From a virus, in the IMG/VR virus record IMGVR_UViG_3300049592_000018, positions 1,149 to 65,148 of that record: a stretch of DNA of 64,000 bases, one strand, 5' to 3'. The translations under genes and the position numbers were made by a program. Below the pieces are notes generated by a model. That model was not told where the DNA came from, ran no database searches, and saw only the letters and a program-made list of their open reading frames with translations. Of this stretch, positions 31,690 through 37,454 are shown piece by piece; the first letter of the stretch is position 1, and the number at the start of each line of letters is the position of its first letter.

Positions 31690-33309
31690 GTGGATCTGCC
31701 ACCGCGACGTCGGCGTCCAGTCGGGGGAGCGCTCACCGAGGCGCGCGCCCTCGTACCGCTACCACCGGAGCAGCGTGAGGCGCTGGTCGCCGCCGCGGGT
31801 ATGCTGCAGGGTTCCACGCGAGAGACGTTCGCGACGCAGTACCGTTCGTGGCAGGACGAGCTGTGGGAGTACTCACGCTCGGTCGGCGAGTACGGATCCG
31901 TGATGGACTGGTTTTCGGCGGGCATCAGTCGCATGCACCTGGTCGCCGCCGTTCAGCGAAGCGACGACCTACTACGTGAACCCGAGCCGATCACCGACGG
32001 TCCGGCCGCAGCGCTGGTGGCCGATCTGGTCAACAACGCGCGCAACGGCGAGACGCAGTACCTACTTAAGTGGGGTCGTCACCTCGCGATTCCCGGCGTC
32101 GGGTTCTTCATCGGCGAGGATCGCATCCGTGAGGGTGGTGTTCGAAGCTACGACGTTAAGTCGGCGAAGCAGGTGCGACGCGGCACACGCCCGTTGAGGG
32201 GACCCGACGGAAAAGTTTTACGAACGGAGTGGGGCGAGCCCGTCACCGGCTTCGAACTAATGGATGAACCCGACCGCTGGCGACCGCTCGGACCCAACAG
32301 CCTCGTCGGTCGCATCTACCGGCCGGACGACGAGTACGACTTTAACGTGTCCAGCTGGTCGCGACACGCCATCACGACGCTACGTGAGATCGACCTGTAC
32401 AACCGTCACATCGTCGCCGTGCTGCTGTCGCGACTGGTGTTCAACGGCATCCTCTTCATTCCCGAGGAGGTCACGTTTCCGGTCAACCCGCAGTTCAAGG
32501 ACGCGCCCGACCCGTTCATCGCGGAGCTGATCGCCATCGCGTCTCGCGGCATTAAGGACCCCGGTTCGCCGGCCAGCGCGCTGCCGCTGCCGCTGCGCGT
32601 TCCCGCGATGTTCGTCGAGAAGTTTCAGCATATGATCATTGCCACGGGCGTTGATGAGAAGACCGTCGAGGCCCGGGCCGCGTCCGTCGCGCGGCTCGCG
32701 CGGCAGCTTCCCGCGCCTCCGGAGGCCATGGAGGGTAAGAGCCAGCTCAATCACTGGAACGCCTGGGCCGACTCCGCGGACAACGTGCGCTTCTACTTCG
32801 GATCGACCATGGAGATCCTAACCGGCGGCCTAACGGATGTGTTCCTGTGGCCGATGCTGCGCGCCGCCAATGAAAGCATTCACACACCGGACGGCGGGGG
32901 TCGGTACGTCATCTGGTATGACCCATCCGACCTCGTTGCGGCGCCGGACAACTCCGAGAACGCTGAGCAGGCGCGCGGACGCAACAGCATCTCCGATGAC
33001 GCCTACCTCAAGGCGATCGGTCTCGATGACGCCGATCGACCCAGTGATGAAGAACTGCGTAGGCAGATCCTGACGAACCTGGCGACGCAGGGTCTACCGC
33101 TTCCCGACTCGTACTACAAGCTCTTTCCCGATGAGGAACCTCCGCCGCAGGCCGCGCAGGCCGCCGGGGCCCTCGCCGAGGCGCAGGCTGCCGCCCTACC
33201 GCAGCCCCCAGACCAGGCAGTCGACCGCTCACGGGGTAACGTTGGCCCGTCGCCTAGTGGGCGGTCGGCTGCCGGGACCGGTCGCCCACCGACCGGAGGT
33301 CGCCGATGA
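31690..33309 (+). CDS. Portal protein
   Basis: SWQDELWEY, NGILFIPEE, NHWNAW motifs typical of actinophage portals; position between TerL and MuF. Confidence 0.85.
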   Translation: MDLPPRRRRPVGGALTEARALVPLPPEQREALVAAAGMLQGSTRETFATQYRSWQDELWEYSRSVGEYGSVMDWFSAGISRMHLVAAVQRSDDLLREPEPITDGPAAALVADLVNNARNGETQYLLKWGRHLAIPGVGFFIGEDRIREGGVRSYDVKSAKQVRRGTRPLRGPDGKVLRTEWGEPVTGFELMDEPDRWRPLGPNSLVGRIYRPDDEYDFNVSSWSRHAITTLREIDLYNRHIVAVLLSRLVFNGILFIPEEVTFPVNPQFKDAPDPFIAELIAIASRGIKDPGSPASALPLPLRVPAMFVEKFQHMIIATGVDEKTVEARAASVARLARQLPAPPEAMEGKSQLNHWNAWADSADNVRFYFGSTMEILTGGLTDVFLWPMLRAANESIHTPDGGGRYVIWYDPSDLVAAPDNSENAEQARGRNSISDDAYLKAIGLDDADRPSDEELRRQILTNLATQGLPLPDSYYKLFPDEEPPPQAAQAAGALAEAQAAALPQPPDQAVDRSRGNVGPSPSGRSAAGTGRPPTGGRR

Positions 33310-36300: not shown

Positions 36301-37454
36301 GCGGTACGGCGAGCGGACCGACCACCTTCGGTCCCGTACCCACACCGGTACCTGGACCCGGACCTAAGACGGCACCGAGCGTCGTGCCGCCGGTTATGAA
36401 GGCCGTACCCGCGGTTAAGCTGCCGAAGTTGACCGCTGAGACGTTTCAGCAGCAGGCCGCACAGCTCCCCGCATCTCTTACCATTGCGCAGCGTAGCGCC
36501 GCATATAAGCACCTAAAGAACCAACCGGAGACGAGTCTCGGCGCCTCACCGGTCACCATCTTCACGGGTCTGCTGCAGACGCTCGACTGGCACAACGGAC
36601 AGTCGTCACCGGATGCGCAGCTCAGCCTTCTGCAGTTGGTTACACTGATCGACGAGCAGGGTGCGTTCTACGCTAAGACACCCAATACCAACGCGCTGCG
36701 CACGAAGATCATTGACTGGCTTCAGACTCCCGCCGGACGGAAGACCGCGCAGGAAATCATTGCGCCTAGCAGCGCTCTCTCTACCGTTCCGGCAACTCTT
36801 CCGGGTGTTATCGATCATCCGGCAAAGAGTGTTCCCTCACCGCAGGTAGCGGCGATCCTAGCTAAGCTGAGGAATCCCGCGGATATCGGCGTACCGGACA
36901 CCAACGTCACCGGGTTTAAGAAGATTACAGCCATTGAGGCTAAGGAAGCTCAAAATAAGGTTCTTCCCAACCTAAGTGGTCCCCAGGCCAACGCGGTCAC
37001 AAACTATAGCGGTAGCGGATATGACAACATTAACGGCGTACTTCGGGGTGGAGCAACCTACTCGGCGGAGGACGCAGCTCAGCGTGCGGTACACATTCAA
37101 GATGCTATGAGACCTCTTACCGAAAGTGTGCTGCTGTTTCGCGGTGTGTACAGCGACGCATTTCCGGGATTAAGCGACTCGGCGCCCTTCGACTCGGTAA
37201 AGAAGCTCGAAGGTAAGGTCATTCGTGAAAAGGGCTTCATGTCCACCTCGGTTAACCAGGGGAGTGCGTTTAGTAAACCTATTAAGTTGACGATTGAGGC
37301 TCCCGTGGGTACCCCGGCGATCTACATCGAAAAGTGGAGCAGTCACCCAAATGAGAAGGAGATGCTGCTCGCCGCCGGTCTTAAGTACCTAGTCGTGTCC
37401 GTTACTCCCGGTGATGGCGGTAAGATTAACGTAAGATTGAGGGTGGTGCCGTAG
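33306..37454 (+). CDS. MuF (phage minor head) protein fused to two ADP-ribosyltransferase domains
   Basis: MuF motifs ARTEV, KVWLATEDARTRPAH, FPGDP, NCRC; ART1 LHRG/FVSTS/ENE; ART2 LFRG/FMSTS/EKE. Confidence 0.9.
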   Translation: MITRFRGLTPNELKIHEDVFEALVAKSLRLAVRGLAANLGGLLTAASTPTLAGEPPPAAPTVTSSVLAGVVASWTAQVNAELYPYVAQAFTESAEVTYAGLEKLTETVVPKITNSFVQNYLRNSRDRLLDIGDVIWSSVREELAVGYAAGEDMHQLAARIRQAGNISMSKALTVARTEVISAANAGALAQVKQAGFTDEECRKVWLATEDARTRPAHEAADNQVVGINEPFYVGRDYLQFPGDPAGRLDNVVNCRCSLEFLFDDDDIVTAAGDPDWNESEHPRDAQGKFTEKIGSASVKKIKSILSTPPSPSPSPKKSTPKKTKTPTKVGTPLHINTNVIYKQKYAAGTVVAEKNVSIADSVYYPMRLVWSESSKKFVLQGRMDDGKWVNVGLYGKGEAYKKFSKETGWFTPGTLDLDDSSPTESTSTATSKKLSVAEVILLPASEKKKWIESLTQDEFDALSPSEQTEIESKFNAEHNTWGDDVGIDALEKLINAKDDHESDDFDALASYTSQFGDDDDDDDDDDLGTFDPVLDVAKSAHTMTSGAFGIWFTANSKKLQEVWPDLDEQTRDSVLKAAEKYDIAYNDGLFLGTVNEWNNDLNVDSTSAPSTPAPVAPAAPIPKLPHVVNAAEIAAGTKFVGDIGTPKSSLHVKYVPLTPQIMSQLQTQMLEGSKKKWTAKHKKAVEWYTTSVGYQTTNAVLRNDEKQLKKFSAAQLEQGARFGVDLQDAMTPLIEAVELHRGVGAHAFGFDDIHVDTAKLKKLQGTVIQDPGFVSTSIVPPTHISFDYAKKPIKVIVRAPEGTPALYVSDATPGYAHENELILGAGTSFHIDEVRAASADDKAKYGNHTEQVVVLTVVPSTPKAPGTPTVTPSTVAAPKPSPNPPPVSAGPPSAAPINAGKPIHINTAVIYKTKYAHGAVVAVKAGAKMPDGRSRRLVWNENIKKFVLQQEVSPGTWVNSLSDGQVNFNKKQAYDNFSKLDGWQLPPPGMTALGQPQFGGTASGPTTFGPVPTPVPGPGPKTAPSVVPPVMKAVPAVKLPKLTAETFQQQAAQLPASLTIAQRSAAYKHLKNQPETSLGASPVTIFTGLLQTLDWHNGQSSPDAQLSLLQLVTLIDEQGAFYAKTPNTNALRTKIIDWLQTPAGRKTAQEIIAPSSALSTVPATLPGVIDHPAKSVPSPQVAAILAKLRNPADIGVPDTNVTGFKKITAIEAKEAQNKVLPNLSGPQANAVTNYSGSGYDNINGVLRGGATYSAEDAAQRAVHIQDAMRPLTESVLLFRGVYSDAFPGLSDSAPFDSVKKLEGKVIREKGFMSTSVNQGSAFSKPIKLTIEAPVGTPAIYIEKWSSHPNEKEMLLAAGLKYLVVSVTPGDGGKINVRLRVVP

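Follow-up and report, generated by a model that had tools for sequence, protein, structure and literature searches.

The window analyzed here is a 64,000-nucleotide stretch of viral DNA that corresponds to bases 1149-65148 of the 65,148-bp virus record IMGVR_UViG_3300049592_000018 in IMG/VR, a record with direct terminal repeats and a completeness rated at 100%. Its head module contains a gene, here called MuF-ART, that has the portal gene directly upstream and the protease and capsid genes downstream. The encoded protein combines an N-terminal MuF head-morphogenesis domain with two ADP-ribosyltransferase (ART) domains and two copies of a basic domain of about 80 residues, here called rep. It is a real conserved feature that represents a new architecture of a known strategy, and it brings with it two new domain families: rep and an all-helical domain, X. 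The protein is probably a virion-packaged effector comparable to Alt of phage T4, whose two ARTs would act on two sets of host proteins.

Domain Organization of the MuF-ART Protein

From the N-terminus to the C-terminus, the MuF-ART protein consists of MuF, the WNESEHPRDAQGKF motif, rep1, an acidic spacer, ART1, rep2, the helical domain X, and ART2 (Table 1). The borders are derived from hidden Markov models (HMMs) built on the window protein and its relatives. The MuF region is matched by PF04233 (Phage_Mu_F) over aa 138-258, with 56.4 bits against a cut-off of 29.6 (E 6e-15), and by phrog_2468 (E 2.1e-37). A Pro/Thr-rich linker separates ART1 from rep2, and a further linker lies between rep2 and domain X. 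PF03496 (ADPrib_exo_Tox) is found in two stretches of the protein (whole-protein E 3.5e-46). A six-frame search of the whole genome gives exactly two ART matches (90.3 and 76.1 bits; cut-off 23.4), both in the MuF-ART open reading frame (ORF).

Comparison of the protein with itself by BLAST recovers two internal repeat pairs. The rep pair aligns aa 303-412 with aa 874-986 at 43% identity (E 9e-21), and the ART pair aligns aa 608-834 with aa 1153-1366 at 32% identity (E 5e-21); judged by these alignments, both pairs are far beyond chance. Over 91 alignment columns, rep1 and rep2 are 52% identical. There is no detectable similarity in the same comparison between spacer 1, which lies between rep1 and ART1, and spacer 2, which lies between rep2 and ART2. 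Spacer 2 holds a conserved helical domain of its own (X); spacer 1 is without a Pfam family and was detected by phmmer in only nine proteins. A preliminary description, made from the letters of the window, had reported two copies of a domain of about 80 residues, each followed by a different spacer and by an ART with intact R, STS, and ExE residues. The HMMs place both domain copies within a few codons of where that description had put them, the spacers do differ, and all of the catalytic residues are present (the E818 codon is at nt 35757 and the E1350 codon at nt 37353).

Table 1. Domains of the MuF-ART protein and genes of the surrounding head module (nucleotide positions in the window)
Feature	Nucleotides	Residues (aa)	Strand	Remarks
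MuF (SPP1 gp7-like) head-morphogenesis domain	33306..34130	1-275 (1-300 in the HMM-based layout)	+	PF04233, phrog_2468
Motif WNESEHPRDAQGKF	34131..34172	276-289	+	Portable short motif after MuF; HPRD begins at nt 34146
rep1	34293..34544	330-413	+	First copy of the unclassified basic ~80-aa domain; isoelectric point (pI) 9.5
Spacer 1	34545..35219	414-638	+	Acidic (pI 4.05), with a D9 run; poorly conserved
ART1	35220..35882	639-859	+	R741, S775-T-S, E818-N-E820; internal ART clade
rep2	36000..36266	899-987	+	Second copy of the domain; pI 9.9
Domain X	36426..36776	~1041-1157	+	Conserved, all-helical
ART2	36837..37451	~1178-1382	+	R1279, S1313-T-S, E1350-K-E1352; C-terminal ART clade
Portal gene	31690..33309		+	phrog_776, E 1.7e-76
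MuF-ART gene	33306..37454	1382 aa	+	Single uninterrupted ORF
2H phosphoesterase gene	37454..38104	216 aa	+	PF13563, E 1.1e-9; phrog_2659, E 2.3e-29
Capsid maturation protease/scaffold-like gene	38139..40352		+	phrog_859, E 7.2e-58; phrog_18402, E 1.2e-23
Major capsid protein gene	40642..42324		+	phrog_777, E 2.4e-124

The Two ADP-Ribosyltransferases

The closest solved relatives of the two ARTs are different. The best sequence matches of ART1 in the PDB are iota Ia, CdtA, and VIP2 (E 6e-8), and its PGYA-x-E-x-E loop is like that of iota Ia. The best match of ART2 is 8za7_B, the Listeria Lmo0066 ART (E 5.8e-19), and VIP2 is next; no account of the activity of Lmo0066 (entry 8ZA7) was found in the parts of the literature accessible to the search. 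ART2 also matches phrog_802, the Alt-like RNA polymerase ART (E 2.9e-7), only over aa 1213-1261. An AlphaFold2 (AF2) model of aa 1029-1382, with a predicted local distance difference test (pLDDT) value of 88.6, comprises a separate helical domain, a disordered linker, and an ART. The modeled ART2 superimposes on Certhrax with a Z of 20.9 and a root-mean-square deviation of 2.0 over 179 residues, and it reaches Z scores of 20.8 with C3bot2, 19.8 with CPILE-a, and 18.9 with both 8za7_B and VIP2. In this model, the ART fold thus holds for ART2.

Phylogenetic comparison divides the ARTs of the family by their position in the chain. In a FastTree phylogeny of 147 near-full-length ART domains (domains covering <140 profile positions were left out), 47 of the 50 internal ARTs form one clade (support 1.0) with no C-terminal ART inside it. 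The three internal ARTs outside this clade are extra ARTs located right after MuF in P0004 and P0087. Mean identity is 0.51 inside the internal clade, 0.35 inside the C-terminal clade, and 0.31 between the two. The catalytic Arg and the second Glu are kept in all 147 aligned domains, and ExE is kept in 142. The consensus of the loop preceding ExE is specific to each clade (ATPG..ENELILGAGTSF versus ISsh..EnEMLLAAGLKY), so that the ARTs of the window protein are diverged, as the preliminary description held, both in clade and in loop. In related toxins, this loop (the ARTT loop) is the site of substrate recognition. Both ARTs appear to be under selection and to differ at the substrate-recognition site, because the catalytic residues are conserved and the loops are clade-specific. 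Both are apparently active, and the loops fit different substrates for ART1 and ART2.

The Rep Domain

The rep domain is rare and is nearly confined to one kind of protein. A profile of the two copies, searched against 1.84 billion representative proteins, retrieves no more than 78 (E <= 0.001), and almost all of these are giant MuF/ART proteins of more than 1000 aa with 2-5 rep stretches. The domain had been suggested to be new, with an HMM search as a check; rep has no family in Pfam (E <= 10), PHROGs, or NCBIfam, in agreement with that suggestion. Neither rep nor domain X matches LPD or other polyvalent-protein Pfam families. The Pfam candidates that came up at E <= 10 in the search with rep and X (GLEYA, M23, and DUF4961) were rejected as sub-threshold noise. 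A PDB profile search with rep gave no match (best E 0.087), and the ESM Atlas gave no usable match for rep or domain X.

The AF2 model of rep, made for rep2 from a 43-sequence alignment, has a mean pLDDT of 91.2 and a predicted template modeling score of 0.80. It starts with a short helix, continues with a four-strand sheet and a C-terminal helix, and ends in a short strand. At E <= 0.001, Foldseek found nothing similar to the model in PDB or BFVD. In VIA-align, whose top Z typically lies at 7-8 even for models that match nothing clearly, rep reaches Z 4.4 with the PC4 homologue 5a4n, 3.9 with Pur-alpha, and 3.8 with 2ra8. As modeled, rep is a confidently folded, unclassified small basic alpha/beta domain, for which neither a new nor a known fold is shown. 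For a pairing of rep1 with rep2, as in a PUR-like repeat, complex prediction gave no answer (score 0.01 against a mark of 0.32), a result that speaks neither for nor against the idea. Near-invariant residues are P4, A24, R38, W41, K46, K47, Q51, W59, K72, Y76, W85, and P88. The basic charge is a general property of the domain: among 216 rep domains, the median pI is 9.5, and 82% have a pI above 8.5.

Domain X and the Conserved C-Terminal Core

Domain X is detected by phmmer in 66 proteins, and its place is invariably after the last rep and before the C-terminal ART. Its AF2 model consists of helices with block-mean pLDDT values mostly of about 87-97, followed by a disordered linker. Domain X has no match in Pfam, PHROGs, or NCBIfam. 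Fold candidates (a TRRAP fragment and the GT-1 and Zeste DNA-binding domains) were rejected, as their Z scores of 5.2-5.8 are noise for helical models. The last rep and the last ART are separated by a median of 192.5 aa, with an interquartile range of 179-206 (n = 94). The arrangement rep-X-ART2 is regarded as the conserved core of the family, because this interval is tightly kept and X occurs in 66 proteins, compared with nine for spacer 1. ART1 together with its rep appears to form a second, separately conserved unit.

Family Architecture and Module History

A word-indexed search identified 68 related proteins, about 40 of which are MuF/ART proteins of 1174-2217 aa, many with an added NUDIX domain. 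Family counts were taken from a pooled set of 123 stored proteins, of which 97 carry rep. At least two rep copies are present in 92 of these 97 proteins, and 70 have a MuF match longer than 150 aa. The number of ARTs is one in 46 proteins, two in 44, three in four, and none in three. The order rep...ART...rep...ART is found in 47 of the 48 proteins with at least two ARTs; the exact pattern of the window protein, rep-ART-rep-ART, occurs in 23 of the 97. Reps outnumber ARTs in 66 of the 97, and 42 of the 46 single-ART proteins have at least two reps. Many members carry NUDIX between MuF and the first rep (including P0004, P0008, P0009, P0013, P0016, P0082, P0090, and P0123), and 2H and NUDIX domains lie inside the MuF polyprotein in P0123, P0117, and P0082. 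P0106 is the only relative with an ART-PolyVal domain. P0039 has an intein-like match inside MuF that is below the cut-off.

The two modules of the window protein had been described as tandem-duplicated. This description does not hold: the modules are old, separately conserved units, and rep is not paired one-to-one with ART. N-side reps of other proteins share 65-70% identity with rep1, whereas rep2 shares 61-65% with the C-side reps of P0002 and P0003. At the DNA level, rep1 and rep2 differ at many positions over their whole length. A recent tandem duplication was rejected, since reps and ARTs are nearer to their positional counterparts elsewhere than to their partners in the same chain, the rep DNA has diverged, and the spacers are unrelated. 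On these sequence comparisons, the two modules are old paralogues.

Related loci were collected by a search of IMG/VR with an alignment of eight rep sequences, which yielded four (L002-L005). Three of these (L002, L003, and L004) have the order portal, MuF-ART (1597 aa), 2H, protease, and capsid as far as the contig reaches; the L003 contig is cut at the upstream end. Their 2H protein is 506 aa long and has an added kinase domain of the Zeta-toxin/AAA_33 type (L004, 10386-11906). In L005, a 98.9-kb viral contig, portal, MuF-ART, and 2H are kept within an expanded effector array. Seven overlapping genes follow the portal gene (3604-15346) and together include ART-like and rep domains (six of each) and a single 2H domain. 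In order, they encode a MuF-ART protein (481 aa), an unclassified protein (311 aa), a rep-rep-X-ART protein (682 aa), an ART (267 aa), a rep-rep-ART-rep-ART protein (1175 aa), an ART-containing protein (380 aa), and a 2H protein with a rep domain (626 aa). In the last of these (13466-15346), 2H is fused to rep (rep E 3e-17). These architectures of related loci and relatives indicate that rep travels with several kinds of effector and that the modules can be separated into individual genes.

The short HPR motif that follows MuF in the window protein is also portable. The strict form HPRxxxG[KR][FWY] is present in 56 of the 123 stored proteins. Three effector genes of L005 that lack MuF (5958-8006, 8003-8806, and 8803-12330) carry the motif W-x-E-x-x-HPRD-x-x-G-[KR]-F within their first 100 residues; its general form is W-x-E-x-x-H-P-R-[DGA]-x-x-G-[KR]-F. 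The motif may be a docking peptide, a capsid-targeting peptide, or a processing site.

A search of IMG/VR with the whole MuF-ART protein gave no close relatives, and rep2 with domain X has no match at E <= 0.01 in a tblastn search of 50,697 deposited phage genomes. The best phage matches to the window protein (P0001) cover at most 16% of it. In bacterial genomes (GTDB, one per species), a pattern-limited search gave no convincing copy of rep; one 19-residue match in a metagenome-assembled genome was regarded as spurious.

Proposed Mechanism of Delivery and Action

For the MuF-ART protein, the domain content, conservation, intact catalytic residues, and gene context are established. That it is packaged and ejected, that its ARTs are active, specific for arginine, and directed at distinct targets, and what rep does are inferred parts of the following reading, to which a probability of roughly 0.6 is assigned. 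The protein would be a polyvalent, Alt-like effector packaged in the virion of an apparently lytic, siphovirus-like phage. By analogy with SPP1 gp7 and other MuF proteins, its MuF N-terminus would place it inside the capsid at the portal. On infection, the chain would exit with the DNA, as T4 Alt does, and bring in two mono-ADP-ribosyltransferases, separate enzymes of the Alt/VIP2/C3 (R-S-ExE) type. As soon as infection begins, each would draw on host NAD+ and modify arginines on its own set of host proteins, in the service of takeover or of the disarming of defense. The Pro/Thr-rich linkers would hold the domains as beads on a string. Loading, ejection, and two targets are proposed because MuF/gp7 proteins leave with the DNA, T4 Alt is packaged and injected, and MuF-effector fusions are read as injected. 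Two surveys, in their available text, treat Alt/VIP2 ARTs, Nudix, and 2H domains fused to MuF as effectors that are packaged in the head and injected (PMC9503650, PMC5512222).

Several points weigh against this reading. The passenger on MuF is 150 kDa, which is large for passage through the tail. The motif is QNE in place of ExE in five of the 50 internal ARTs, all of them in relatives, and specificity may therefore vary. In characterized enzymes, ExE goes with arginine transfer, and the arginine specificity of ART1 and ART2 is extrapolated from those enzymes. Structure searches with rep gave matches at noise level (best Z 4.7 against 48,161 chains in VIA-align). Lastly, an integrase-free genome does not prove a strictly lytic lifestyle.

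For rep, the favored guess, given a probability of about one in three, is an adaptor for delivery or packaging, with a polyanion such as the packaged DNA as its ligand. Four observations favor this role: the domain is basic, it occurs in multiple copies, it precedes each cargo, and in one case it is fused to an effector other than an ART. The chief alternative is substrate docking. A targeting module, which the preliminary description had proposed, is one option among several, because rep is not one-to-one with ART and one rep is fused to a 2H phosphoesterase. A bolder and doubtful extension is that rep, perhaps together with the W-x-E-x-x-HPR-x-x-x-GKF motif, constitutes an unrecognized cargo-loading system in a lineage of uncultivated phages. 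Rep would then tie any effector (ART, 2H, or NUDIX) to the packaged DNA or the portal complex, so that injection would be preserved when modules are gained, exchanged, or moved into genes of their own; ART1 and ART2 would be weapons that are loaded independently and hit different targets in the host.

Of the readings that compete with a packaged arginine-modifying effector, the one that survives best, though unlikely, is that one or both ARTs are mainly NAD+ glycohydrolases or modifiers of a non-protein acceptor (a nucleic acid or small molecule). Such enzymes would drain or redirect host NAD+, e.g., against NAD-dependent defense, rather than act on arginines. This idea is consistent with the occurrence in relatives of ARTs alongside NUDIX and 2H domains, whose substrates are NAD/ADP-ribose derivatives and RNA ends, and with the QNE variants of the internal clade; networks of this kind are discussed in the available part of a 2022 survey (PMC9503650). 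However, the nearest structural and sequence relatives (C3, VIP2, iota, and Certhrax) modify proteins, and the ExE motif that accompanies arginine transfer is kept in nearly all ARTs of the family.

Quite improbable is a MuF polymorphic toxin as understood by Jamet et al. 2017, one that a temperate phage uses to kill or arrest competitors while a cognate immunity protein shields the lysogens. MuF with a C-terminal toxin domain is the defining architecture of such toxins in the available text (PMC5576092), and the best solved sequence relative of ART2 is the ART half of entry 8za7, which is titled 'ART-ARH type toxin effector-immunity pair'. Yet the complete phage genome has no match at E <= 0.1 to tyrosine integrase, serine recombinase, ADP-ribosyl glycohydrolase (ARH), or Macro, in searches that matched 14, 13, 7, and 9 of 14 control genomes, respectively; ARH and Macro are the known types of enzyme that confer immunity to ARTs or reverse their action. 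There is also no small ORF (<150 aa) directly after the MuF-ART gene that could be a candidate immunity gene; the preliminary description had likewise noted no obvious immunity gene there. The next gene encodes the 216-aa 2H phosphoesterase; it is probably a companion effector that belongs to the same effector set and not an immunity gene, because relatives fuse 2H to MuF or to rep. The failure to find a convincing rep copy in the bacterial genomes searched by pattern also speaks against a toxin of lysogens.

Very improbable, finally, is late synthesis with action confined to the producing cell or the virion itself (e.g., capsid-internal proteins), with no delivery to the next host and a purely structural MuF: the gene does sit in the late structural operon, but the MuF fusion, kept in 70 of the 97 family proteins, is hard to explain if packaging is irrelevant, and T4 Alt is a precedent for packaged ARTs in the available text of PMC5512222 and PMC9503650.

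Relation to Known Systems

The principle of a head-delivered ART is already known, because MuF-VIP2 fusions, MuF toxins, and polyvalent proteins are in print. MuF-VIP2 fusions occur in lytic Microbacterium phages of clusters EH and EJ (e.g., Percival gene 4), according to the available text of PMC7302621. The window protein shares with them an N-terminal MuF fused to a VIP2-type R-S-ExE ART, a gene beside the portal gene, and a predicted place in the virion. In contrast to the single ART described in that text, it adds an ART of a second clade, two reps (2-5 in the family), and domain X. MuF toxins have been described for temperate phages (PMC5576092, in its available part).

T4, with Alt, ModA, and ModB, offers a second comparison. 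Alt is an ART of the same Alt/VIP2 family, and in T4, too, several ARTs with different targets occur in one phage. Alt is packaged through a capsid-targeting peptide and not through MuF, and the three ARTs of T4 are separate genes expressed at different times. The window phage, unlike T4, carries two ARTs on one chain, and their loading is predicted to proceed via MuF. In the accessible text of PMC5512222 and PMC9503650, Alt is a head-packaged ART that is injected with the DNA and modifies host RNA polymerase and other proteins.

Polyvalent proteins, as defined by Iyer et al. 2017, are large proteins with several effector domains in which MuF is a hub and ART is the commonest protein-modifying domain; ART is sometimes present in multiple copies, and 2H-MuF fusions are described (available text of PMC5512222). 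The window protein is likewise large and carries two ARTs on MuF, and its relatives add NUDIX, 2H, and ART-PolyVal. The polyvalent-protein ARTs highlighted in that text belong to the H-Y-D clade Tox-ART-HYD2 (Pfam ART-PolyVal), whereas both window ARTs are R-S-ExE enzymes by their motifs. The catalytic fold and motifs are those of C3, VIP2, iota Ia, Certhrax, and Lmo0066 (for ART2, Z 18.9-20.9 over 171-180 residues). Those toxins are secreted, act on eukaryotic or rival bacterial cells, and have their own translocation parts or an ARH immunity protein. In contrast, the predicted delivery vehicle of the window ARTs is the phage head, and the genome search gave neither an ARH nor a Macro immunity gene. 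The two-clade ART arrangement, rep, and domain X were not found in the accessible literature or in the 50,697 phage genomes, although figures and supplements of the surveys could show similar arrangements.

Head-packaged ARTs are known from T4 Alt and from single MuF-VIP2 fusions, and few of their targets in Gram-positive or actinobacterial hosts are known. As two separately conserved ART clades are present on one chain, two target sets could be compared within one infection. The strict placement of rep and X before the effectors makes both of them candidates for parts in delivery or substrate recognition. If rep were generally used for loading, this would account for the way in which these phages assemble and rearrange long effector arrays, and rep could become a handle with which foreign proteins are brought into phage heads. 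Should both ARTs prove ordinary, there is still a well-documented new architecture, with two new domain families for the databases.

Neighboring Genes and the Phage Genome

The stop codon of the portal gene and the start of the MuF-ART gene overlap as ATGA, with GGAGG 7 nt upstream of the start. The MuF-ART stop and the start of the 2H gene overlap by 1 nt (TAGTG), the TAG sharing its G with GTG, and the two genes are translationally coupled. The 2H phosphoesterase also matches TIGR02258 (E 4e-10), under the cut-off of that model, and it may heal RNA ends or degrade signaling nucleotides. There is a weak, sub-threshold match of the same protein to the anti-CBASS Acb1 family (E 0.0027). The protease/scaffold-like ORF has a duplicated FHG[NT]HNQxDHNPHKD motif and a run of eight Asp; Asp runs are common to this ORF and to spacer 1 of the MuF-ART protein, which has a run of nine.

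The major capsid protein shares no more than 32% identity with those of Microbacterium, Gordonia, and Mycobacterium phages, which makes the phage an uncultivated, distant relative of actinobacteriophages. The host is probably actinobacterial; the same low identity counts against this assignment. The phage has replication genes of its own for a family A DNA polymerase, a primase-polymerase with a D5-type domain, and an SNF2 helicase. Other genes encode a dCMP deaminase, the large terminase, the tape measure protein, and glycosyltransferases. A methyltransferase gene, an NAD-dependent epimerase gene, and three glycosyltransferase-like genes follow the tail genes at 54375-58795. Two tRNA genes are present, tRNA-Met (CAT) at 15086-15162 on the minus strand and tRNA-Ser (CGA) at 30130-30222 on the plus strand.

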